This document shows, piece by piece, positions 4,797-15,794 of a DNA stretch of 42,918 nucleotides. Position 1 is the first letter of the stretch. Every line of letters starts with the position of its first letter. The notes below the pieces were generated by a model. It was not told the DNA's origin. It saw only the letters and a program-made list of their open reading frames with translations, and did not search any database. The stretch lies in NCBI GenBank assembly GCA_025726505.1, contig GCA_025726505.1_4340.1. The stretch is one strand, 5' to 3'. The stretch is from a phage. A program made the translations under genes and the position numbers.

Positions 4797-4828
4797 CTGT
4801 TTCGTTAACTGATGATGAGGGTTTGAGA

Positions 4829-4999
4829 ATGACACAGAATGAGGTAGCTGAGCGTATTGGGGTTACTCGCCGCACGCTTAATAACTGGTTAAAGAGTGGG
4901 AAGTTCCCGGATTGTTGTATCCGTATTATGGGTCGCCGGCAGCCTGGTACGTTCGACCCAGAGAAAGTGGAAGCGTGGATTAAGGAGAACGTTAAATGA
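4829..4999 (+). CDS. Small HTH DNA-binding protein (AlpA/excisionase-type fold)
   Basis: 56-aa ORF QNEVAERIGVTRRTLNNWLKSGKFP...FDPEKVEAWI; GAGG RBS; ATGA overlap with next gene; preferred over track ORF 4896-5084 in another frame. Confidence 0.55.
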   Translation: MTQNEVAERIGVTRRTLNNWLKSGKFPDCCIRIMGRRQPGTFDPEKVEAWIKENVK

Positions 5000-5229
5000 C
5001 CGAGTTCCAGTCACGAGTATTTACGGCGGTCGTTTCGTTAACCCGCAAAAAAGGGTCGTGCAGCGTTATGGACTTGCGCCGTAGTTATTTTAGGTACTAT
5101 AGTTCAGCCATTATTGAAGGGTCGTTGAAAGTGCTGGTTAAATCCGGTGTCGTGAAAAACGTTGGCGGGAAATATAGCGCCGTTGCAGAAGTTCGCGGAA
5201 TGACCGCTACTTTAGAAGACCTGGAATAA
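4996..5229 (+). CDS. Hypothetical protein with C-terminal EDLE tail
   Basis: 77-aa ORF coupled to upstream HTH gene; ends ...TATLEDLE. Confidence 0.6.
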   Translation: MTEFQSRVFTAVVSLTRKKGSCSVMDLRRSYFRYYSSAIIEGSLKVLVKSGVVKNVGGKYSAVAEVRGMTATLEDLE

Positions 5230-5288
5230 AAGAAAGCCCCGACGCGGTGAACGCCGAGGCCAAATTACTCGCTGAAGGAGCATACAAT

Positions 5289-7529
5289 ATGTCCGATGTA
5301 ATTTTATCCTACTCGTGGTCCCGTCGCAACGCGCGGGCAGAGAAAAAGGATATAAACGTCAGTACCACACACACGGCAACACTGGACGACCTGAAAGAGT
5401 TAATCCAGCCGCTCGATGCCGTTCGTCGCGGAATTGACCCGAAGACCGCGCCTGGCTATATCACCGCCGCGTGCGATTCTACGCACAGCACCGTAAAAGA
5501 CCCGGAAACCGGTGACTTTAAACAAGCGCGTAAAGGCTTTTTCTATCGCTGTGATGCGTCTGTAAGCAAATCGTCGCTGGCGTATCTGGACTTCGACAGC
5601 GCAACACCGGAAGAGTATCAGGAAGCGGTGCGCCTGGTTAAGCGCAGCCGCCGGGCGATGTGCCTCTACACCACGGCATCACATACCGAAGAGTCACCGC
5701 GCTTTCGCGTCGTTATGCCACTGGCCTGCCCGGTTGAAGGCGGCGACATCATCCGTGTTCGTCATGGATTGCTCGAGCACTTCTTCAACGGCATGGGCGC
5801 CGACCGCAGCGGGTTCACTCTGTCACAGCCAATGTACCTGCCGCCGGTAGGCTCTACCGTTATCTGGTCTCGCCGCAACGACCTGATTGACCCGGATGAA
5901 TTACTGGAAGGCATCCCCGCCGTTGACGTTAGCAGCGCATCGGATTACCAGATACCGGAAGAGCTGCGCACTGCGTTTACTGATGCGTTTGAGGCACTGG
6001 CGTTCGAGTACGGCGGTGTTATGACGCCCCGCGGACTGAAAATGTCAGCTACGCCGGAACACGCAGAAAACTACAGCGACCCGACGCCACGCCCGGACGA
6101 CTTCCTGTTGTGCTTCCCACGCGAAGGATATGAAGCGCCGAACGTAACCATGATTCACGACACCGACATTACGGCAACCGAAGGCATGTCACCGAAAGAG
6201 GTGTGGAAGTATGCGTGCGATGCGACTGGTCTGCCGTTCAGTGAAGTCGCTGAGGCAATCGGATGGGGCGCGCGTGAATCTGTTTCGTGTAGCCTGGACG
6301 ACCTGGAAGACGATGAGGACTCAGAGGAGGACGAGCTACCGGAACCGGTAAAGGCTGATTTCGTCGTTGAAGGGTACATGCCGTCGGATTGTATATGGGA
6401 TATTGTCGGGGAATCTGGCACGTACAAATCATTCTATACGCTGGGGATGATGTACCTGAGCGCCGCCGGGTACCGGTTTGCGGGGGCAGACACCCAGCGA
6501 TGCTACCACTTCTATATCGACGGCGAGGGTGGCGCAGCCACACGTACACGTATTGACGCGCTCGCGGCTAAATACGGCGTGGAAGGTAAAGATTATGTAC
6601 ATGTCGTCGATATGGGTGAAGTCGGCAAACTTAAAAGCCTGATTAAGCTAATGCGCGAAACTGCTGGCGGCGAGCCAATCGGCATGGTTGCATTCGACAC
6701 CCTTAACCAGACGCTGGCCCTGACGATTGATAAGTTCGACGAGAACAGTTCATCAACAGCAATCGGTATGGGTAAAGTCATCGCCATCCTGAAAGAAGTG
6801 CGTGACGCGACTAAGGCCGCGGTGGGCGTCGTCCACCATACACCGAAGGGTGGAAAGAAAGCCCGTGGTAGTGGCGCGCTGTATGCGGGTGTTGACGTGG
6901 AACTGACAATCGAACGCGCGACCGACCGCCAGATAAACGTATACCACTCGAAATTCAAGCACGGACCTCAACAGAAGACGGTTGGCATGGTGCTGGAGTC
7001 AGTACAGTTCCGTGAAGCCCCACCGCCGAAAGAATACCGTGCTGTTGAGTTCCTCGGTAGCACGGAGGAATACGGCACAATCGTAAACCTCGACCTGCCA
7101 GAACCACATAAGGCACTTGTGTTGATGCCGTGGGGCTTCGAGCCGTTCAAAACTGACGAGGAGAAAGAGCGCGAAGAAGGGCTGACAAAGGAAGGTAAAG
7201 AAAACGTAAAGAATGCTGTGAAACGTGGGAAGGATGAAGGGCGTAAGGAATCAATACTCGCCGCGCTGGAAGACCTGCAACAGTCAGACGACACCGGACG
7301 AGGGTTTACACAACGGCAGATAGTGGCTAATTCTGGCGACCACGCCATCACCAACCATCATCTCGAGAAGATGCTGAAAGACGGCGAGTTGATGTTAGGG
7401 TGCGATGTTAACGGTGAAGTTATGCCTGGCACATACCGGATACCTGAAAAGATGGGCGACAGATTAAGGCCGAAGACAATATACGAACCGAATGAAATGC
7501 TGGTGGTGACAGAGGAGGATTTGGAATAG
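5289..7529 (+). CDS. Bifunctional primase-helicase (AEP/PrimPol-like N-terminus + P-loop NTPase C-terminus)
   Basis: N-terminal DxD (LAYLDFDSA) and SxH (TASHTEESPRF) primase-like motifs; acidic linker DDLEDDEDSEEDE; Walker A-like VGESGTYKS and Walker B-like MVAFDTL; start moved to ATG 5289 with GAAGGAG RBS (track GTG 5247). Confidence 0.8.
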   Translation: MSDVILSYSWSRRNARAEKKDINVSTTHTATLDDLKELIQPLDAVRRGIDPKTAPGYITAACDSTHSTVKDPETGDFKQARKGFFYRCDASVSKSSLAYLDFDSATPEEYQEAVRLVKRSRRAMCLYTTASHTEESPRFRVVMPLACPVEGGDIIRVRHGLLEHFFNGMGADRSGFTLSQPMYLPPVGSTVIWSRRNDLIDPDELLEGIPAVDVSSASDYQIPEELRTAFTDAFEALAFEYGGVMTPRGLKMSATPEHAENYSDPTPRPDDFLLCFPREGYEAPNVTMIHDTDITATEGMSPKEVWKYACDATGLPFSEVAEAIGWGARESVSCSLDDLEDDEDSEEDELPEPVKADFVVEGYMPSDCIWDIVGESGTYKSFYTLGMMYLSAAGYRFAGADTQRCYHFYIDGEGGAATRTRIDALAAKYGVEGKDYVHVVDMGEVGKLKSLIKLMRETAGGEPIGMVAFDTLNQTLALTIDKFDENSSSTAIGMGKVIAILKEVRDATKAAVGVVHHTPKGGKKARGSGALYAGVDVELTIERATDRQINVYHSKFKHGPQQKTVGMVLESVQFREAPPPKEYRAVEFLGSTEEYGTIVNLDLPEPHKALVLMPWGFEPFKTDEEKEREEGLTKEGKENVKNAVKRGKDEGRKESILAALEDLQQSDDTGRGFTQRQIVANSGDHAITNHHLEKMLKDGELMLGCDVNGEVMPGTYRIPEKMGDRLRPKTIYEPNEMLVVTEEDLE

Positions 7530-7539
7530 GTAGAAAGAA

Positions 7540-7556
7540 AGGGGCGTTAAGCCCCT
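7540..7556. terminator. Hairpin between convergent primase and XRE genes
   Basis: AGGGGC (7540-7545), loop GTTAA, GCCCCT (7551-7556); overlaps the 3' end of the minus-strand XRE gene. Confidence 0.45.
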
Positions 7557-7762
7557 TCACCGAACGCCAGCCACTTGGCGTCTACTTGTAGCACTCCCGC
7601 CAGTTTAAACAGCGTCGCCGGGCGGACGTCCTGAGTTACACCGAGTGCTAGCTGGTTAATTGCGCCCTGGGAAACGCCAGCCATGACCGCCAGACGGCGC
7701 TGGGAGATGCCGAGTTCTTTACGGCGTTGTTCTACGCGAATGCCTAGTTCAGATGGTTGCAT
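7547..7762 (-). CDS. XRE-family (Cro/cI-type) HTH transcriptional regulator
   Basis: 71-aa product with canonical HTH LGISQRRLAVMAGVSQGAINQL; divergent from the rightward operon. Confidence 0.8.
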   Translation of the reverse strand: MQPSELGIRVEQRRKELGISQRRLAVMAGVSQGAINQLALGVTQDVRPATLFKLAGVLQVDAKWLAFGEGA

Positions 7763-7790
7763 GTTAATTACTCCTTAGTTAGTCAATATG

Positions 7791-7809
7791 TGAATAGTAC
7801 CATATTAAT
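7791..7809. promoter_or_regulatory. Operator-like motif copy (TGAATAGTACCATATTAAT)
   Basis: Imperfect copy of the AATAG-N4-CTATT core, 29 nt upstream of the XRE gene start. Confidence 0.4.
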
Positions 7810-7826
7810 TATTTTAGAAAAGCCCA

Positions 7827-7856
7827 TTGACAACATGAATAGTTAGCTATTATAGT
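7827..7856 (+). promoter_or_regulatory. Sigma70-like promoter with overlapping palindromic operator
   Basis: TTGACA (7827-7832), 18-nt spacer, TATAGT (7851-7856); spacer contains AATAGTTAGCTATT (7838-7851); 32 nt upstream of ATG 7888. Confidence 0.55.
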
Positions 7857-7887
7857 TAGCCCATACCAAACGAGAGGAGAGAAACAA

Positions 7888-8388
7888 ATGTTAGAGAAAT
7901 TCTTAGTATTACTGGAACGTTTCGTAGTTGCGCATGAACTTATTGCTGCGAATAGTGCGAAAGAACCGGTGATTGGCTCACCAGAACATTTTGCTGAGTT
8001 TTGTAAGCTGCAAGGTGTAAGTGTAAAAGAGGCTTTAACTAAACCTTCAAAAGAAATCCCGGTCGAAGGGGAAGACATCGTCGACACTAAACCGGCAGAA
8101 GAAGAGAAGCCGAAACGCAAGCCGCGTAAAGCTAAAGTAGAGGAACCAACGCCAGAGCCGGAAGAAGAGAAAGAAGAGGTCGATTACCAGTCTCTTCGGG
8201 ACCAGATTCAGGCTATCGACGATGCAATTATCGAAGGTCCGAGCGATGCCGCGTACGATGATTCTGATGAACTTCTGGAAGAGTTCACCGGTAAGAAAAG
8301 GAAGATTGCTGCGATTAAAGACGAAGACCTGGCTGAATACCTGGAACGCCTGACGGCAATCAAGAACAAGTATTTCGAAGAAGAATAA
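7888..8388 (+). CDS. Hypothetical highly acidic protein with Lys-rich insert
   Basis: 166-aa ORF, GAGAGGAGAG RBS; Glu/Asp-rich (EEPTPEPEEEKEE, ends KYFEEE) with KPKRKPRKAK patch. Confidence 0.7.
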   Translation: MLEKFLVLLERFVVAHELIAANSAKEPVIGSPEHFAEFCKLQGVSVKEALTKPSKEIPVEGEDIVDTKPAEEEKPKRKPRKAKVEEPTPEPEEEKEEVDYQSLRDQIQAIDDAIIEGPSDAAYDDSDELLEEFTGKKRKIAAIKDEDLAEYLERLTAIKNKYFEEE

Positions 8389-8395
8389 CTATAAC

Positions 8396-8411
8396 GCGGC
8401 CTTCGGGCCGC
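8396..8411 (+). other. Intercistronic tetraloop hairpin
   Basis: GCGGCC-TTCG-GGCCGC directly followed by AACTGAGGGTCTGAATT-ATG of the next cistron; no long U-run. Confidence 0.5.
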
Positions 8412-8431
8412 TTTAACTGAGGGTCTGAATT

Positions 8432-8635
8432 ATGGCTATTTTAGCTAAGAAAAGTGGTCTTATGATTTCAGGGCGAGTTATAGAAGAAACAGATAGCTTT
8501 GTATGCTTCCACGCGACAGATAACAAACGCCCTACGTATGTACAAAAGTCGGATAAAACACAAAAAGTTTTCGACGGTGATTTTTCTATGGATGACGTTT
8601 TCGCGTGGATTAATTCTGTGAGGGTAAAGAAATGA
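8432..8635 (+). CDS. Hypothetical protein
   Basis: 67-aa ORF, GAGGG RBS, ATGA overlap with next ORF. Confidence 0.55.
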   Translation: MAILAKKSGLMISGRVIEETDSFVCFHATDNKRPTYVQKSDKTQKVFDGDFSMDDVFAWINSVRVKK

Positions 8636-8904
8636 TTTACCAACTCTACCGCGCCGTAGACAGGCGGGATAACACGGAGGCGCTATGGCTGTTGCGTGCG
8701 CCGTCCGGTGCGCACCAGATGGAAGAGATGGCGTACTTAGGCAAAGTACCGCGGCCCAAAGATATTGGCCGTCACGTGTCGCAGATTAAGCGCACGACTT
8801 TCGCCAAGCCTGACTTTTATGTCTTCGAGTCGATGTATGGGTGGGCTATGCATTGCCATCACCAGACACGACATTTAATTGACCAGTGGGAGAGCAGGGT
8901 ATGA
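8632..8904 (+). CDS. Hypothetical protein
   Basis: 90-aa ORF coupled to flanking cistrons. Confidence 0.5.
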   Translation: MIYQLYRAVDRRDNTEALWLLRAPSGAHQMEEMAYLGKVPRPKDIGRHVSQIKRTTFAKPDFYVFESMYGWAMHCHHQTRHLIDQWESRV

Positions 8905-10166
8905 TTTTAAAGGAACGCGGCGGCAATAATGATGTACACGCCTTACTGTCACCGTCAGGCGCTAAAAAGTGGCTGACGTGCAGTGCATCGCTGGCCTGTG
9001 AAAAAGATATTCCTAACACGTCAGGTAAATCCGCCGTTACAGGAACAGCATGCCACACTATAGCAGAGGTCCACCTAAACCAGTACATCAAAGGCACAGC
9101 GTTGCCGTTAGAGCGTGAAGTCGGCGCTTATGTGCTGGATGAGGGTAAAGGCCAGATTAAGGCACTAATCAGCCCGATGAAAGGCGCTGTACTGATTACC
9201 GCTGACATGGTTGAGCAGGTGCGCAAGTACACCGACTACTGCAAAGCGATTATCGACGTGGCGACTTACGCCAAGCTGGAAATGCGCGTCAATCTTACTC
9301 AGATTCTACACCCCGGGTACAAAGTACCGGCTGAGGGTGAAGAAGACGATTTAGAGACGTTTGGGACCGCGGACCTTGTTGCCGTTCAGGAACTGGCAAA
9401 CACCGACGAGCACATGCTCATTATTGGGGACCTTAAAACAGGACGGCATCGTGTCGAAGCGAAAGAAAACAAGCAGCTTATGCTTTATGCTCTCGGTGTT
9501 TATCGCAGACTCAAGAGACGCTATAACATCACCATGGTTCGTCTGGTCATCTTCCAGCCGTACGCTGGTGGTGCGTCGGAGTGGGACATCTCGGTTGAAG
9601 GTCTGGAGCTGTTCGCTAAGTTTGCACAGAAACGTGCACTGCTAGCACTAGACGCCTATTCCCGTGGTAAAAAGAACCTGAAATCGTCTGACTTCAGGCC
9701 GTCGGTAGATGGATGCCAGTGGTGTCGGTTCTCTGAACAATGTGCCGCGCGTACAAAGACGGTTAATTCTGTACTGGCGGAAGAACTGGAAGACGACTTT
9801 GTGCTGGAACTGACGCCGGAGCAACTCGTAACTGAGTATGAGAAGTTGCCGTTGTTGCGCCAGCACATCGACAAGGTTGAGAAAGCTATGGCTGCCGCGT
9901 TGCATTCCGGTAAGAAAGTGCCTGGGTACAAGCTGGTTGAGGGTAAGAGGGGCAACCGTGCGTGGAAAGACACCGATGCGGTATTTGAGAAGTACGGTAC
10001 TATGCTGCAAAAGGTAGTTCTCATGACGCCAACAGAAGCTGTTAAGGTAATACCGGAAGAAGAACTGAAAGACTTTATTACCCGTAAGCCTGGCACGCCA
10101 TGCGTCGCAACGGCAGACGACAAACGGCCTGAGTGGAATAAGGTTAGTGAAGAAGATTTAGAATAA
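8901..10166 (+). CDS. Cas4/RecB-family PD-(D/E)xK exonuclease with Fe-S cysteines
   Basis: N-terminal Cys (KWLTCSASLAC), nuclease motifs GTADLV...IGDLKTG and QLMLYALGVY, C-terminal CQWCRFSEQC; ends SEEDLE; start at ATG 8901 (track 8886 is GTG). Confidence 0.75.
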   Translation: MILKERGGNNDVHALLSPSGAKKWLTCSASLACEKDIPNTSGKSAVTGTACHTIAEVHLNQYIKGTALPLEREVGAYVLDEGKGQIKALISPMKGAVLITADMVEQVRKYTDYCKAIIDVATYAKLEMRVNLTQILHPGYKVPAEGEEDDLETFGTADLVAVQELANTDEHMLIIGDLKTGRHRVEAKENKQLMLYALGVYRRLKRRYNITMVRLVIFQPYAGGASEWDISVEGLELFAKFAQKRALLALDAYSRGKKNLKSSDFRPSVDGCQWCRFSEQCAARTKTVNSVLAEELEDDFVLELTPEQLVTEYEKLPLLRQHIDKVEKAMAAALHSGKKVPGYKLVEGKRGNRAWKDTDAVFEKYGTMLQKVVLMTPTEAVKVIPEEELKDFITRKPGTPCVATADDKRPEWNKVSEEDLE

Positions 10167-10170
10167 AGTG

Positions 10171-10199
10171 TTGACACCTGAATAGTTAACTATTATAGT
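10171..10199 (+). promoter_or_regulatory. Sigma70-like promoter with perfect palindromic operator
   Basis: TTGACA (10171-10176), 17-nt spacer, TATAGT (10194-10199); spacer contains perfect 14-bp palindrome AATAGTTAACTATT (10181-10194). Confidence 0.6.
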
Positions 10200-10257
10200 T
10201 CTAATCACTGGCCGGGCAGCTCCCGGAGTAAACGAAACTTAAAAGCGAGAAATCACG

Positions 10258-10887
10258 ATGGGTATTAAACTGAATCTGCGTAAAGTAAACACTGCTTGGG
10301 TTAACGTATTCGAACGCGAAAAAGACCGTGAAAACGATGATGGCTCAATCACTAAAGGTCAGTACAGCGCTACTATTATCCTGCCGTCCGACCACGCGCA
10401 AATCGACGCGCTCTACGACACCGTTTACGCGGTAGTCGAAGAAGCGTTAGGCGCCGCCGCTGCCGAGAAATGGATGAAGTCCAACTACGGCGAAGGTAAG
10501 CACATGGATAAATGTGCGATTAAAGACATTGCCGAGCGCGACAATCCGTTCGAAGACTTCCCGGAAGGCTTCTACTTCAAAGCGAAGGCGCAGAAACAGC
10601 CACTGATTGTAACCTCTAAAAAAGGTGAGACTCAGGTAGAGCAGGACTTCAACGTAGACGGCGAACAGATTGAAGGTGAACAGGTTTACAGCGGATGTGT
10701 AGCCAATGTAAGCGTCGAAATCTGGTTCAGCCAGAAATACAAAGTCCTCGGCGTTAACCTGCTGGCGATTAAATACGTCGGTGAAGGTAAAGCGTTCGGT
10801 GGTTCTAAAGCCGCCGCAAGCGTCAATGACCTGGAGGACGACGAAGAAGATGAAGTGCCACGCCGCGAACGTCGTCGCCGTGGTTAA
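10258..10887 (+). CDS. ssDNA-binding / annealing protein, T7 gp2.5-like (tentative)
   Basis: 209-aa product; by-eye resemblance to gp2.5 (NPFEDFPEGFYFKAKA vs MPFFDNGDGTTTFKFK; LLAIKYVGEG); acidic tail NDLEDDEEDE then RRERRRRG. Confidence 0.5.
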   Translation: MGIKLNLRKVNTAWVNVFEREKDRENDDGSITKGQYSATIILPSDHAQIDALYDTVYAVVEEALGAAAAEKWMKSNYGEGKHMDKCAIKDIAERDNPFEDFPEGFYFKAKAQKQPLIVTSKKGETQVEQDFNVDGEQIEGEQVYSGCVANVSVEIWFSQKYKVLGVNLLAIKYVGEGKAFGGSKAAASVNDLEDDEEDEVPRRERRRRG

Positions 10888-10906
10888 TATCTGAATCTGT
10901 TTAATT

Positions 10907-10945: not shown

Positions 10946-13219
10946 ATGAGTTATCTGTTCTTAGACTTTGAAACCTTCTCCGAAGCCGATTTGAAGAAAG
11001 TCGGCTCCTATGCTTACGCCGAACACCCGACTACCGAAGTGCTCATCTGCACCTATGCTTTTGATGACGAGCCTGTTCAGGTATGGGACTGCACTGACGG
11101 CAGCGACATGCCGGGAGATTTACACCGCGCGTTACGCCGTCTGGTGAAGCCAAACAGTCGCATTAAGATGGTGTGGCACAACGGCTCAATGTTCGATAGG
11201 CTCATCATGAAGCACTGCTGGGGCTTTGAAATCCCCGTAAGCAACACCATTGATACTATGATTTGGGCGTTTCGTCACGCGCTGCCGGGGTCTCTTGATG
11301 CGTTGTGCGAAGTGTTGGGTGTATCTGCGGACAATGCGAAAGACAAACGCGGCAAGGCGCTGATTCAGCGTTTCTCTAAACCGACGCCGAAGAACTACAA
11401 AATCCGCCGTTACACCGCAGAAACACACCCGGACGAGTGGGCGCTGTTCATCAAGTACGCCGTGAGTGACATCACTGCGATGCGTGAAGTCTTTCATAAG
11501 CTACCGCGGTGGGGTAACTCCGAGTTCGAAGACCGTGTACTGGAACTGGACCAGTTAATCAATGACCGGGGCTTTTTTGTTGATACGGCTCTTGCTGAGG
11601 CGGCGGTAGCGGCAGTGGAACGCCACAAGCAAGAGCTAAAAAACGAGGCCCGCGCAAAATTCGGGGGGAAACTAACGGGCAAAGATTTCCTGCCAATCCT
11701 TCGGGAACTGGCACCGGCTTACGATATCTATAATGCGCAGAAAGCAACGCTAGAGGGTTTGCTAGAGGATGACGACCTGCCTGATGATGCACGTACAATC
11801 ATTGAGATGCGCCTCGGCGCGGCCTCCACGGCGTCAACAAAATATAAGCCGCTCCTGCTAGGACGGTCCAAAGACGGACGACGCCGTGGTTGCATCCAGT
11901 ATGGCGGCGCGAAGCGCACTTTACGATTCGCGGGTAAAGGGTTTCAGCCGCAGAACCTGTCGCGCGGGTACTACCACGACGACCCGACTAACGAGGAAAA
12001 GAAACTTGTACGTCAGCCGTGGGAGTCCGACGAAGACTGGAACCGCAGGCTTAACCCGTTATCATTCGGCATCAATTTGCTTTTAAAGGGTCGGGCGCAT
12101 CGCCGCTTCGATGTATCTAAACTGACGGCCTCGACAGTCCGCAGTTGCATCATCCCAGAAAAAGGCAATAAGTTGCTCGTTGCTGACTACTCGAACGTGG
12201 AAGGGCGCGGGTTGGCCTGGACGGCGGGGGAGACGTCCGCTCTTGAGACGTTCCGCGCGGGGATTGATATCTATTGCGCCACTGCGGGCAAGATGTTTGG
12301 TATGGATCCTATTGAGCTTAAAGCCATCCGTAAGGACCTACGTCAGGTCGGGAAATGTTGCGAACTCGGCCTCGGCTACGAGGGCGGCGTAGGAGCTTTC
12401 ATGACTATGGCTAAAACTTACGGGCTGGACCTCTTTAAAATGACGGAGACAATGCGAGGTACGTTCCCTGACCATATATGGGCCGCCACTGCCCGAGGAT
12501 ACGAATGGGCGCGGATTCAGGAGGCTAAGCGGCCCCCAAAACCCGGTAAAAAAGATGAACGGGCCTCTTATGTGCTGCCTAAAGAAGTGTGGCGCACCTG
12601 CGATGCTATCAAGCGCATGTGGCGCGAGGCCCATCCGGAAACAGTTAAATTCTGGAAGGACCTTAAGGATTCGGTAATTGCCGCAATCAGAAACCCAGGA
12701 CGAGAGTTTTGGGCGGGGGCCAGAGTCCGCCTTAACGGCGACAGAGCTATTCGCATCTGGCGTACTAAAGAGAAAGACAGACAGGGTAACTTTGTGCCGG
12801 GTTGGTGGTTGTGCGTGGAACTGCCGTCTGGGCGCATCATGTCCTACCCTGGTATAGGCTTAAGCGTCACTAAAGAGACTGACGAGGATGGGCGCGTAAC
12901 AACTAACGTTCGCATTAAGTACCAGGGCGAAAATCGGACCACCCGCCAGTGGACAACTTTGTACACCCACGGCGGAAAATTGTGTGAAAACATCATCCAG
13001 GCGTTGTGCCGTGACTTACTAGTTAACGGACTCCTGACGGTCGAGGCAGCGGGCTACCCGATTGTGCTCCACGTACACGACGAATGTGTGGCTGAAACGC
13101 CAGATACGCCGGAGTACACGGTTAAAGAGATGGGCGACCTGCTATGCGCATTACCTGAATGGGCTGAAGGGTTCCCGTTAACATGGGCTGGGGAAGAGGT
13201 GTACCGCTATGCTAAGTAA
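10946..13219 (+). CDS. Family A DNA polymerase with 3'-5' exonuclease domain
   Basis: Exo motif LFLDFETFS at N-terminus; polymerase motif A LLVADYSNVEGR, motif B RKDLRQVGKCCELGLGYEGG, motif C VLHVHDECV. Confidence 0.9.
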   Translation: MSYLFLDFETFSEADLKKVGSYAYAEHPTTEVLICTYAFDDEPVQVWDCTDGSDMPGDLHRALRRLVKPNSRIKMVWHNGSMFDRLIMKHCWGFEIPVSNTIDTMIWAFRHALPGSLDALCEVLGVSADNAKDKRGKALIQRFSKPTPKNYKIRRYTAETHPDEWALFIKYAVSDITAMREVFHKLPRWGNSEFEDRVLELDQLINDRGFFVDTALAEAAVAAVERHKQELKNEARAKFGGKLTGKDFLPILRELAPAYDIYNAQKATLEGLLEDDDLPDDARTIIEMRLGAASTASTKYKPLLLGRSKDGRRRGCIQYGGAKRTLRFAGKGFQPQNLSRGYYHDDPTNEEKKLVRQPWESDEDWNRRLNPLSFGINLLLKGRAHRRFDVSKLTASTVRSCIIPEKGNKLLVADYSNVEGRGLAWTAGETSALETFRAGIDIYCATAGKMFGMDPIELKAIRKDLRQVGKCCELGLGYEGGVGAFMTMAKTYGLDLFKMTETMRGTFPDHIWAATARGYEWARIQEAKRPPKPGKKDERASYVLPKEVWRTCDAIKRMWREAHPETVKFWKDLKDSVIAAIRNPGREFWAGARVRLNGDRAIRIWRTKEKDRQGNFVPGWWLCVELPSGRIMSYPGIGLSVTKETDEDGRVTTNVRIKYQGENRTTRQWTTLYTHGGKLCENIIQALCRDLLVNGLLTVEAAGYPIVLHVHDECVAETPDTPEYTVKEMGDLLCALPEWAEGFPLTWAGEEVYRYAK

Positions 13220-13426: not shown

Positions 13427-13575
13427 CAATGCTTGTATTTTGGACGATAGTAACCATGCTCGCACTTCTACTCGGTGCGGGAATAGCCGCGATGTTCTGC
13501 TATGGCCTGTTCTTTAATTTTGTCGGTGTTGCCGTTCTGGGCGGGGCATTTATAACTTGGGTTCTGCGCTCATGA
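13423..13575 (+). CDS. Candidate 50-aa membrane micro-protein
   Basis: Two hydrophobic segments; ATGA-coupled to the VRR-NUC gene. Confidence 0.3.
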   Translation: MTMLVFWTIVTMLALLLGAGIAAMFCYGLFFNFVGVAVLGGAFITWVLRS

Positions 13576-13886
13576 CCCCGGAAGGAAAAATACAGAAATA
13601 CGCAAAAGAGCGATTCGAGGCCATCGGGGGCCTCGTCCGTAAACTGTCTTATGAGGGGCGCTCCGGCGCTCCCGACCTGCTGGTAATTCTCCCGGGCGGC
13701 ATCGTCTGGTTCGTCGAGGTGAAGAAAGACGAAAGCACGAAGCCTGACCCACACCAGTTACGAGAGCATGAGCGGATGCGTAAACGTGGCGCAAATGTTT
13801 TTGTCGTTGGTTCGATAAAACAGATTGACACCCTAATAGCAGACTATTATAGTAAGCACATACCCCAACAATATAAGGAATTATAA
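13572..13886 (+). CDS. VRR-NUC domain nuclease
   Basis: PD-(D/E)xK core GAPDLLVILPGGIVWFVEVKK...REHERMRKRGANVFVV; start at ATG 13572 (track start 13557). Confidence 0.75.
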   Translation: MTPEGKIQKYAKERFEAIGGLVRKLSYEGRSGAPDLLVILPGGIVWFVEVKKDESTKPDPHQLREHERMRKRGANVFVVGSIKQIDTLIADYYSKHIPQQYKEL

Positions 13887-14181: not shown

Positions 14182-14373
14182 ATGAAATACGAATATGACC
14201 GTAAACCAGCACGTGACATCGTACCTGGCGACATGATTTTCAACGTTAAGACCCGCCAGCCTGTTGCCGTTGATACGATGTTCGTCGAGTCAAACGGTAA
14301 ACTGGTTATCGAAGATGTAACAGGCAATGTTACAGCGTTCGGGCGTAAAGAGTTAGTTCTGGTGGCAAAATGA
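14182..14373 (+). CDS. Hypothetical protein
   Basis: 63-aa ORF, AAGGAATT RBS, ATGA overlap with helicase gene. Confidence 0.55.
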   Translation: MKYEYDRKPARDIVPGDMIFNVKTRQPVAVDTMFVESNGKLVIEDVTGNVTAFGRKELVLVAK

Positions 14374-15794
14374 GTAAGTTTCAAAGGCGCGAATATCAGA
14401 AGCTCATGACTTCGTTCATGCTACAGCATCCGCGCTGTAATATCTGGTGCGGCATGGGAGGGGGCAAAACCTCCTCAACTATGTGGGTGCTTAATTGCCT
14501 GTTTCGCAACGGGCAGCTTACAGAAGATGACCGCGTGTTAATCCTCGCCCCGTTACGTGTTGCGTCCGGTACGTGGCCCGCTGAACAAGAGAAATGGCAA
14601 TTCCCTTGTCTGCGTGTCGTAGATGCAACTGGTTCGGAGAAGCGCCGCATCGCAGCGCTGGAGTCAGATGCTAACGTGGTGTGCACTAACTACGAAGTTA
14701 TCGAGTGGCTAATTGACTACTACGGCAAAGACGACTGGCCTTTTACGGTTATCGTTGCCGATGAAAGCACGAAGCTTAAATCGTTCCGCAGCCGTTCGGG
14801 TGGTAGCAAGCGGGCAAAGGCGCTCAGCAAGGTTGCGTTCGGAAAGGTTAAGCGTTTCATCAACCTGACAGGCACACCGTCACCAAACGGCCTCAAAGAC
14901 TTGTGGGGTCAGAACTGGTTTATCGACGCTGGCGAGCGCCTGGGGTCATCGTACACGGCATTCACCGACCGCTGGTTTAACTCGGTACAGAAAGGAAAAT
15001 CGGCGATGGCGCGTGAGTATCACGCACGACCAGGTGCGGATAATGAGATTCATCAGAAGATGAAAGACATCAGCCTGACCATAGACCCTGCCGAGTGGTT
15101 TGGTTGTGAAGCGCCTGTTATCGTACCGGTGGAAATAGACCTGCCGAAGAAAGCGCGTCAGGCGTACATAGATATGGAGGAGAAGTTATTCGCAGAACTG
15201 GAGAGCGGGGAAGTTGAAGCGGCTAACGCTGCGGCGAAGACCTCAAAGTGCTTGCAGATTGCATCTGGTGCTGTATATGTGTCGGGGCCAGACGGTGAAG
15301 CAACGAAAGACTGGGAGAAAGTGCACGACACGAAACTGGATGCGCTGGAGTCGATTGTTGAGGAGTTACAGGGTGCGCCGTTACTGGTGGCCTATCAGTT
15401 CAAGCACGAACTGGAGCGCATCCTTAAGCGTTTCCCACAGGCGCAGGCGTTTGCCAAAGGTGCTAAGGGCAATAAGCAGATGGAAGCGTGGAACCGTGGT
15501 GAAATCGAGATTTTATGCGTGCACCCTGCGTCAGCCGGTCATGGTTTGAATTTACAGGACGGCGGGCATCATCTGGCGTTCATCTCACAAGACTGGAACC
15601 TTGAACACTATTTGCAGGTTGTCGAGCGCATAGGCCCTGTTCGCCAGAAGCAGGCGGGGCACGAGCGCCCGGTGTTCCTCTATCACATCGTCGCTAAAGA
15701 CACACTGGATGAGGTTGTTGCCGCGCGTACGGACGAGAAGAAATCGGTACAGGAAGAGTTGCTTAATTACATGAAGAGACGAGGTAAGAAATGA
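14370..15794 (+). CDS. Superfamily 2 (DEAD/SNF2-like) DNA helicase
   Basis: Motif I WCGMGGGKTS, motif II VIVADESTKL, C-terminal HPASAGHGLNLQDG. Confidence 0.85.
   Translation: MSKFQRREYQKLMTSFMLQHPRCNIWCGMGGGKTSSTMWVLNCLFRNGQLTEDDRVLILAPLRVASGTWPAEQEKWQFPCLRVVDATGSEKRRIAALESDANVVCTNYEVIEWLIDYYGKDDWPFTVIVADESTKLKSFRSRSGGSKRAKALSKVAFGKVKRFINLTGTPSPNGLKDLWGQNWFIDAGERLGSSYTAFTDRWFNSVQKGKSAMAREYHARPGADNEIHQKMKDISLTIDPAEWFGCEAPVIVPVEIDLPKKARQAYIDMEEKLFAELESGEVEAANAAAKTSKCLQIASGAVYVSGPDGEATKDWEKVHDTKLDALESIVEELQGAPLLVAYQFKHELERILKRFPQAQAFAKGAKGNKQMEAWNRGEIEILCVHPASAGHGLNLQDGGHHLAFISQDWNLEHYLQVVERIGPVRQKQAGHERPVFLYHIVAKDTLDEVVAARTDEKKSVQEELLNYMKRRGKK

Follow-up and report, generated by a model that had tools for sequence, protein, structure and literature searches.

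The replication operon of the phage genome analysed here carries one short acidic peptide, built around the residues E-D-L-E, on four non-homologous proteins, and we lean towards reading it as a docking motif for a single phage-encoded receptor. The DNA is contig GCA_025726505.1_4340.1 (42,918 bp; hereafter the window, meaning the whole stretch, to which all positions refer), a ~43-kb siphophage genome of the K1G/Kagunavirus type (Guernseyvirinae), whose region 4800-10900 shows ~90% identity to the Escherichia phages BUCT825, EM1 and K1G, with the Jersey-like Salmonella phages being more distant. The analysis was wholly comparative and used sequences and predicted monomer structures. From alignments, the underlying unit was defined as [ST]-x-acidic-D-L-acidic, and five copies of it, three C-terminal and two internal, were found in the window, on a 77-amino-acid (77-aa) accessory protein, a primase-helicase, a recombination exonuclease and a protein (SSB) that binds single-stranded DNA (ssDNA). 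The motif is under selection at the protein level, is conserved in relatives and co-varies among the proteins of one genome. The four carriers and their motif copies are as follows.

4996-5229 (+), 77-aa accessory protein ending ...TATLEDLE (PHROG 5169, outside any Pfam family), its gene directly preceding that of the primase-helicase
5215-5226 (+), C-terminal motif of the 77-aa protein, EDLE, followed by the stop codon
5289-7529 (+), primase-helicase with an AAA_25 helicase core (PHROG 3228) and two motif copies, ending ...VVTEEDLE
6291-6335 (+), internal motif copy, identified by alignment, in the linker that joins the primase domain to the helicase domain, SLDDLEDDEDSEEDE
7512-7526 (+), C-terminal motif of the primase-helicase, EEDLE, followed by the stop codon
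8901-10166 (+), DUF2800 / PD-(D/E)XK (Cas4/RecB-type) exonuclease according to Pfam, ending ...VSEEDLE
10149-10163 (+), C-terminal motif of the exonuclease, EEDLE, followed by the stop codon
10258-10887 (+), T7 gp2.5-type ssDNA-binding and annealing protein, the SSB (PF10991 Enc34_ssDNA-bd, formerly DUF2815)
10825-10854 (+), motif at the start of the SSB tail, ASVNDLEDDEEDE; the basic block PRRERRRRG (10858-10884) ends the protein

The likely start codons of the primase-helicase and the exonuclease are ATG 5289 and ATG 8901, in open reading frames (ORFs) that open at GTG 5247 and extend from 8886, respectively. An earlier reading made from the letters of the window (the sequence-only reading) had reported the three C-termini listed above, a stretch NDLEDDEEDE followed by an arginine-rich end in the gp2.5-like protein, and a related stretch in the primase-helicase linker; all of these were recovered, the linker stretch lying at aa 335-349 when counted from ATG 5289. 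EDLE appears at just three places when the window is translated in all six frames, and at each of them a stop codon follows directly. When one random internal tetrapeptide was drawn from each of the 69 ORFs in 200,000 simulations, three or more ORFs sharing one tetrapeptide were obtained at a frequency of 1.5e-5. The three tails are written in different codons (GAAGACCTGGAA, GAGGATTTGGAA and GAAGATTTAGAA), so they do not represent a DNA repeat, and further synonymous variants are found in relatives with the peptide unchanged, which together indicates that the constraint acts on the protein and not on a DNA or RNA element. The contexts downstream of the three stops are also unrelated, comprising an 18-nt gap, a terminator-like hairpin with a convergent gene, and a promoter-like site. 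A DNA repeat, a ribosome-binding site or a terminator at the gene ends is ruled out by the differing codons and downstream contexts.

Homologues, which the sequence-only reading had proposed as the check on its idea, retain the tail. EEDLE is terminal in 119/120 close exonuclease homologues, and EDLE is terminal in 27/30 full-length homologues of the 77-aa protein, for which 373 phage records were found, all from Guernseyvirinae. The initial exonuclease homologue search gave relatives of >90% identity only, and the diversity described below comes from 50%-identity cluster representatives and a scan of viral contigs. Among the nearest of these exonuclease representatives, D-L lies within the last five residues in 18 of the 19, and over the 146 representatives an acidic-[FL]-polar motif is present in the last 25 residues of 70, versus 5.5% of internal control windows. 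The three orthologues of SETP3 (Jerseyvirus) have the C-termini PEDLE, EGDLE and DDDLE, and SSL-2009a (Dhillonvirus, 46% identity) has ...TDEDLGNE at the end of its exonuclease and ...TDDDLKD at that of its primase-helicase. K1G ORF41, a divergent version of the 77-aa protein with a different linker and 19 extra residues, still ends ...SRDLE. Across homologues, the motif persists down to ~45% identity (45-59%). In a comparison of the window with five related loci (L002, L005, L007, L012 and L013), either of two genes was found to stand between those for the HTH_17 protein and the primase-helicase, one encoding the 77-aa DLE-tailed protein and the other an unrelated, tail-less 96-aa protein (MKGVIFH...).

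The two internal copies are conserved as well. The linker copy of the primase-helicase is kept as C-x-x-acidic-D-L-x-acidic in 8/8 aligned primase-helicases, including those of Dhillonvirus and three unclassified lineages, and the C-terminal copy of the same protein forms a conserved island behind a linker of variable length and sequence, as is typical of short linear motifs. The SSB copy (ASVNDLEDD) follows immediately after the last OB-fold strand and matches, column for column in the alignment, the DDF[DE]D[ILV] motif of distant DUF2815 proteins. Profile-profile comparisons with hhalign, in which the last 125 aa of both the primase-helicase and the exonuclease were set against each other, the 77-aa family and the SSB, detected no common domain among the carriers (top probability 3.5%), and the idea of a shared homologous C-terminal domain was rejected; a weak alignment of uncertain meaning was obtained between the 77-aa protein and the primase-helicase C-terminus (E 0.012). 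A further acidic-D-L-E pattern occurs in a loop insertion, ...AEGEEDDLET, that is specific to the exonuclease of the window (aa 147-152; 9339-9356, +); it lies just before the catalytic F-G-T-A-D motif, at a place where K1G and SETP3 have only ...GYEGVET.

The identities of the SSB and the exonuclease were established from profiles and predicted structures. The SSB matched PF10991 with 60.1 bits (cut-off 26; E 2.9e-16) and PHROG 112 'Gp2.5-like' with an E value of 4.9e-41. In the AlphaFold2 model, built on a 58-sequence alignment, the OB core has a local confidence score (pLDDT) mostly >85, and Foldseek matched the model to 5ODL (1.9e-9), 4KLK, 4JG2 and 1JE5 (1.1e-5), each with probability 1.00, and also to 5ODJ; these matches are Enc34 ORF6, two other DUF2815 structures and T7 gp2.5. 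Residues 181-209 of the SSB tail have pLDDT <50 and are predicted to be disordered, and within this tail the acidic NDLEDDEEDE is followed by nine basic last residues, unlike in T7 and Enc34. AlphaFold2 did not dock the SSB's own motif in the OB groove, a disordered tail saying nothing on the binding site. The exonuclease matched the Pfam families DUF2800 (222 bits) and PDDEXK_1 (33.7 bits), and has the conserved nuclease motif G-T-A-D ... D-L-K together with conserved cysteines, the columns C27, C275, C281, D158, D177 and K179 being invariant and C272 nearly so. Its model has a mean pLDDT of 90 and fold matches to the nuclease domains of AdnA, AddB, Dna2, MGME1, Cas4 and RecE, with 6M9K among the matches. 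The exonuclease tail (residues 411-420) was predicted with a mean pLDDT of 84 and forms a one-turn helix over EEDL at 417-420.

Tail versions also change in step within genomes. For this comparison, 80 viral contigs with exonuclease homologues were collected, and the tails encoded by adjacent genes were set side by side. The distant exonucleases carry a DDF[DE]D[ILV]-type motif plus a second, terminal motif. In Proteobacteria prophage-type modules, including APSE, the exonuclease ends ...NDFDDVSDDALAADLI and the adjacent SSB ends ...DDFDDISEGADASDLV, so that one two-part tail (DDFDD...DLI) is found on two unrelated folds, and where the exonuclease ends in EFI the SSB ends in EFV, and where it ends in ESLI the SSB ends in ESLI. 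Over all scoreable loci, the hydrophobic residue of the first motif was F in both exonuclease and SSB at 33 loci and L in both at 15, and the mixed pairs F/L and L/F were not observed (0). The penultimate residue among the 33 F/F loci was L/L at 23 and F/F at 5, again with no L/F or F/L, and the remaining five loci gave V/L (2), S/A (1), F/E (1) and L/P (1). The tails also match in Staphylococcus Triavirus, with ...EDDFDKL on the exonuclease and ...EDDFDELDTDDEDFL on the SSB. The two groups of SSB tails end differently: in all leucine-version lineages acidic blocks and basic, P-R-K/R-rich blocks alternate in the part of the tail that follows the motif, with one block in the window (DDEEDEVPRRERRRRG) and about four in tandem in SSL-2009a (L004), and in the non-leucine versions the SSB ends in an acidic-hydrophobic tip.

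A separate version of the tail was found in Casjensviridae and Chi-like phages. In Enc34 (Casjensviridae; L085), the primase, ORF3, the exonuclease, the SSB ORF6, the small terminase TerS and ORF17 end in [DE][DE]-E-V. In SPN19, a Chi-like Salmonella phage (Chivirus; L086 and L089), 8 of 77 ORFs end in [DE]3-V, namely the primase, gp70, the exonuclease, the SSB, TerS, gp12 (DUF7609), an RdgC-like protein and gp56 (DUF7443), and of the 11 occurrences of [DE]3-V in 19,107 aa, 8 are C-terminal (binomial P ~2e-16). To judge from its sequence, the Casjensviridae version is an independent one and lends the co-variation its stronger support. Unrelated proteins of one genome switching their tail together is the pattern expected for ligands of one co-evolving receptor. 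The V-ending acidic tail of Chi-like phages reaches beyond the replisome, with the small terminase ending ...DEVDDDEV and the RdgC-like protein ...EDDDEV, and with the tail also present on the DUF7609 protein; the tailed DUF7443 protein adjoins the major head gene, and the SNF2 helicase ends ...WDDEE(D), nearly the same as the V tail.

The closest known system is the T7 replisome, and the T7 analogy drawn in the sequence-only reading proved apt, since the SSB has the gp2.5/Enc34 fold and T7 gp2.5 and gp4 both end D-x-D-F. Comparison of the T7 sequences gave the ends ...EDGDF for gp2.5 and ...NDTDF for gp4, and no such tail on the gp6 exonuclease. In T7, both acidic tails bind basic patches of the gp5 polymerase, the gp4 tail at the front patch, where it meets competition from gp2.5 (PMC12339929; bioRxiv 10.64898/2026.05.20.726333). 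As in T7, a primase-helicase and an SSB of gp2.5 fold share an acidic peptide on flexible ends alongside an untailed family-A polymerase. Unlike in T7, the motif of the window is also carried by an exonuclease of RecB/Cas4 type and by a small accessory protein, occurs twice in the primase-helicase, and is internal in the SSB, where an arginine-rich end follows it; binding of the tail to the polymerase is known in T7, whereas in the window it would be predicted from the sequence. The tip of bacterial SSB offers a second comparison. The acidic end of E. coli SSB, D-F-D-D-D-I-P-F, is an interaction hub, an acidic disordered tail that makes DNA-metabolism contacts through a key hydrophobic residue at its ...DDDIPF tip. 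The tails described here would share the acidic, disordered character and the key hydrophobic residue, but the logic is inverted: there one tail serves many receptors, and here many tailed proteins would imply one receptor. No window protein ends [IL]-P-F, and only one distant DUF2815 protein (L083) ends ...DFPF. A beta-clamp motif of the Q-L-[SD]-L-F type was likewise not found in the tails T-E-E-D-L-E, S-E-E-D-L-E and T-L-E-D-L-E, which have no Q and no terminal hydrophobic residue.

Two further systems bear on the SSB and the exonuclease. The crystal structures of Enc34 ORF6, two further DUF2815 proteins and T7 gp2.5 show the acidic tail lying in a neighbour molecule's DNA-binding groove (PMC5686142). 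The SSB of the window resembles Enc34 ORF6 in matching PF10991 and in its fold; its tail, predicted to be disordered, has an acidic stretch as well, but its terminus is a basic block and not acidic. The Enc34 structure paper (PMC5686142) treats the SSB's own tail only and makes no statement on the D-E-V end of the primase, exonuclease, ORF3 or TerS. In phage lambda, Red-beta is the partner of Exo and in addition binds the C-terminal peptide of SSB (PMC6393309). As with lambda Exo and Red-beta, a PD-(D/E)XK 5'-3' exonuclease is paired with an adjacent single-strand annealing protein; unlike there, where the contact is made through the folded C-terminal domain of Red-beta, it would here involve the exonuclease tail, and no sequence relationship between the two systems was found.

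That the motif binds at all, and what it binds, we infer from these patterns. In the mechanism that we propose, [ST]-x-acidic-D-L-acidic would serve as a docking motif on the flexible ends and linkers of the primase-helicase (twice), the exonuclease, the SSB and the 77-aa protein, all copies would compete for one phage-encoded receptor, and helicase, SSB, recombination exonuclease and accessory protein would in this way be recruited to, and exchanged at, one replication/recombination site. The common docking partner that the sequence-only reading had suggested gains support from the conservation in homologues and the in-step change of the tails. By analogy with T7, the receptor is most likely the family-A DNA polymerase, which we favour because it is the sole large replisome enzyme that is never tailed and because T7 sets a precedent; second in rank is the groove in which the SSB binds ssDNA. 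The polymerase was without a tail in every lineage examined. Modules with shared tails and no polymerase would speak against this receptor, but the loci in which no polymerase was detected do not bear on the point, as they were either truncated or had a 589-621-aa protein in the polymerase position. As phages of the same Enterobacterales hosts carry different tail versions, the receptor would be phage-encoded and co-evolving with the tails, and not a host protein. More tentatively, and with confidence that stays somewhat short of even, these patterns may amount to a lineage-specific 'tail code', in which one peptide (EDLE in the window and DDL.., DDFDD...DLI or EFI, and DDDEV elsewhere) would stand on up to eight unrelated proteins that serve replication, recombination and, in the case of Chi-like phages, packaging, and would address a single phage-encoded hub. 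Equally tentative is the view that hub and tails co-evolve.

Several observations weigh against a single docking receptor, or against the polymerase in that role. The locus counts are not phylogenetically independent, so their statistical weight is overstated, and the co-variation probably has few events behind it, namely one F-to-L switch, one or two terminal-motif switches and the separate Casjensviridae version. The matching of tails is not universal: in the lineage of L049 and L056, the exonuclease ends ...EAFKEEN and the SSB, a confirmed DUF2815 protein, ends ...INPITGLPM. The tails of the window end D-L-E and lack the terminal aromatic residue (Phe) that is essential in T7, where gene 5 suppressors of a gp2.5 without its last Phe have been mapped; in distant relatives, F is found in the first motif or at the penultimate position. 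The 77-aa protein is dispensable, its gene being replaced in many Kagunavirus genomes by the untailed, unrelated 96-aa gene, and on this comparison the tailed small protein is an exchangeable accessory. The polymerase is only a distant member of family A, and no evidence for a thioredoxin-binding domain was found in it. The tails on the Chi-like small terminase and head-region protein are not obviously explained by a polymerase receptor, and the predicted structure of the exonuclease suggests that its tail may partly pack or dock on its own protein.

The chief competitor, which we consider doubtful yet well ahead of the other alternatives, places the receptor in the ssDNA-binding groove of the gp2.5-type SSB. 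The exonuclease, the primase-helicase and the 77-aa protein would then mimic the SSB tail, hold the SSB by its groove and hand it to the ssDNA that they make, with the ssDNA displacing the tail; this would be a form of exonuclease-annealase loading analogous to lambda Exo with Red-beta. It would fit the tails seen in neighbours' grooves in the Enc34 ORF6, DUF2815 and T7 gp2.5 crystals (PMC5686142), the presence of the motif at the start of the SSB's own tail, the near copying of the adjacent SSB's tail by the exonuclease tail in distant lineages, and the adjacency of the exonuclease and annealase genes, as in two-component recombinases. The binding of lambda Exo to Red-beta and the reading of an SSB peptide by Red-beta (PMC6393309) point the same way, as does the occurrence of 6M9K among the fold matches. 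However, AlphaFold2 left the SSB's own tail undocked (the low-confidence residues 181-209), and known groove binding is largely electrostatic, which does not obviously explain a strict D-L or a terminal V. An unlikely alternative dispenses with a common partner altogether: each tail would act in cis, as a DNA mimic or autoinhibitor on the protein's own DNA-binding surface, or as a solubility tag, and the similarity would reflect common chemistry. All carriers are DNA-binding proteins, deletion of the Enc34 SSB tail unmasks double-stranded DNA binding (PMC5686142), and the confidence of the predicted exonuclease tail is compatible with packing on its own C-terminal domain. Such tails leave unexplained, however, why the unrelated proteins of one genome keep D-L-E, D-L-I/E-F-I or D-E-V while genomes differ, and recent gene conversion from one tail to another is argued against by the different codons that they use.

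A host receptor, whether a member of the SSB-C-terminus interactome, the beta clamp or a protease adaptor for which the tail would be a degron, seems very unlikely to us. The distant version DDFDDI does resemble the E. coli SSB end, and one DUF2815 protein (L083) ends ...EDEDFPF, but phages of the same Enterobacterales hosts differ in their versions (EDLE, DDL.., DDEV and DLI), which is unexpected for a conserved receptor. EDLE, moreover, has no terminal aromatic or hydrophobic residue and no Q-L-x-L-F, the motif by which clamp binders are defined, and is unlike the ssrA tag. Least credible of all, and in our judgement almost certainly wrong, is that chance or a DNA-level feature of gene ends (a repeat, a ribosome-binding site or a terminator) happens to translate as EDLE: GAGGA in one of the tails does resemble a Shine-Dalgarno sequence, but the simulated frequency is 1.5e-5, the codons and post-stop contexts differ, and the peptide is kept at 45-59% identity. 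We therefore retain docking on one phage-encoded receptor as the preferred reading.

The remaining genes of the replication region are as follows.

4823-4999 (+), HTH_17 protein of the rightward operon, its stop codon overlapped by the start of the 77-aa gene
7547-7762 (-), Cro-like HTH gene, convergent, adjoining the primase-helicase 3' end
7888-8388 (+), acidic 166-aa protein (PHROG 3127, outside any Pfam family), encoded upstream of the exonuclease gene
(+), 90-aa protein of the rightward operon, listed between the 166-aa protein and the exonuclease
10946-13219 (+), family-A DNA polymerase, 757 aa, inferred candidate receptor
13557-13886, VRR-NUC protein of the rightward operon
14370-15794 (+), SNF2 helicase of the rightward operon, 474 aa

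The 166-aa protein has a conserved acidic-aromatic end of its own, ...KNKYFEEE in the window, ...TYFELED in Dhillonvirus and ...KYYEVEE or ...KYYDIEE in other lineages. Chi gp70 and Enc34 ORF3, which are encoded at the corresponding position, have the shared D-[DE]-V tail as their end; homology of the 166-aa protein to Chi gp70 was considered and rejected, BLASTP being not significant. The SNF2 helicase has a conserved basic C-terminus, ...LNYMKRRGKK in the window and ...AMKKRG.. in other lineages, with a charge opposite to that of the shared tails. SETP3 has an SNF2 helicase of 821 aa and L013 one of 580 aa, and the polymerase has 1,031-1,032 aa in SETP3 (L003), L006 and L013, against 474 and 757 aa, respectively, in the window; the helicase is annotated with an intein in the SETP3 record, so that some relatives have insertions in these replication genes. 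A GC-rich hairpin (aaaggggcgttaagcccctt, 7533-7560), which looks like a bidirectional terminator, is situated between the stop codon of the primase-helicase gene and the end of the convergent Cro-like HTH gene. Directly 3' of the exonuclease stop codon, a near-consensus sigma-70-like promoter (TTGACA, 17-nt spacer, TATAGT; 10168-10200, +) precedes the gp2.5-like gene, and the SETP3 record annotates a promoter at the equivalent place.

The principle of tails shared between replication proteins is known from T7, and on the sequence evidence it is extended here beyond the two proteins of T7 to sets of four to eight, an exonuclease among them. No prior description of shared tails in DUF2800/DUF2815 phages was found in the literature searched, most subscription-journal papers lying outside that search. 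Within the same literature, three points appear to be new: the tails on a RecB/Cas4-type exonuclease, a small accessory protein, the Chi-like terminase and others; the leucine-based EDLE form without a terminal aromatic residue; and the lineage-specific tail versions across a very widespread replication module. Roughly 1,500 phage records have this module, and the groups in which it occurs include Guernseyvirinae, Dhillonvirus, Casjensviridae, APSE-like prophages and Staphylococcus Triavirus. If the docking reading is true, the tails define the interaction wiring of a very common, biochemically unstudied phage replication/recombination module, and eight-residue peptides with point mutants would provide a cheap and specific handle on the hub and on the exchange of helicase, SSB and exonuclease. 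Tail versions could act as compatibility barriers when mosaic phages exchange replication modules, and the tails may matter for defence systems that sense phage SSBs. Should the tail code hold, each phage would be given a private, host-independent interaction network.

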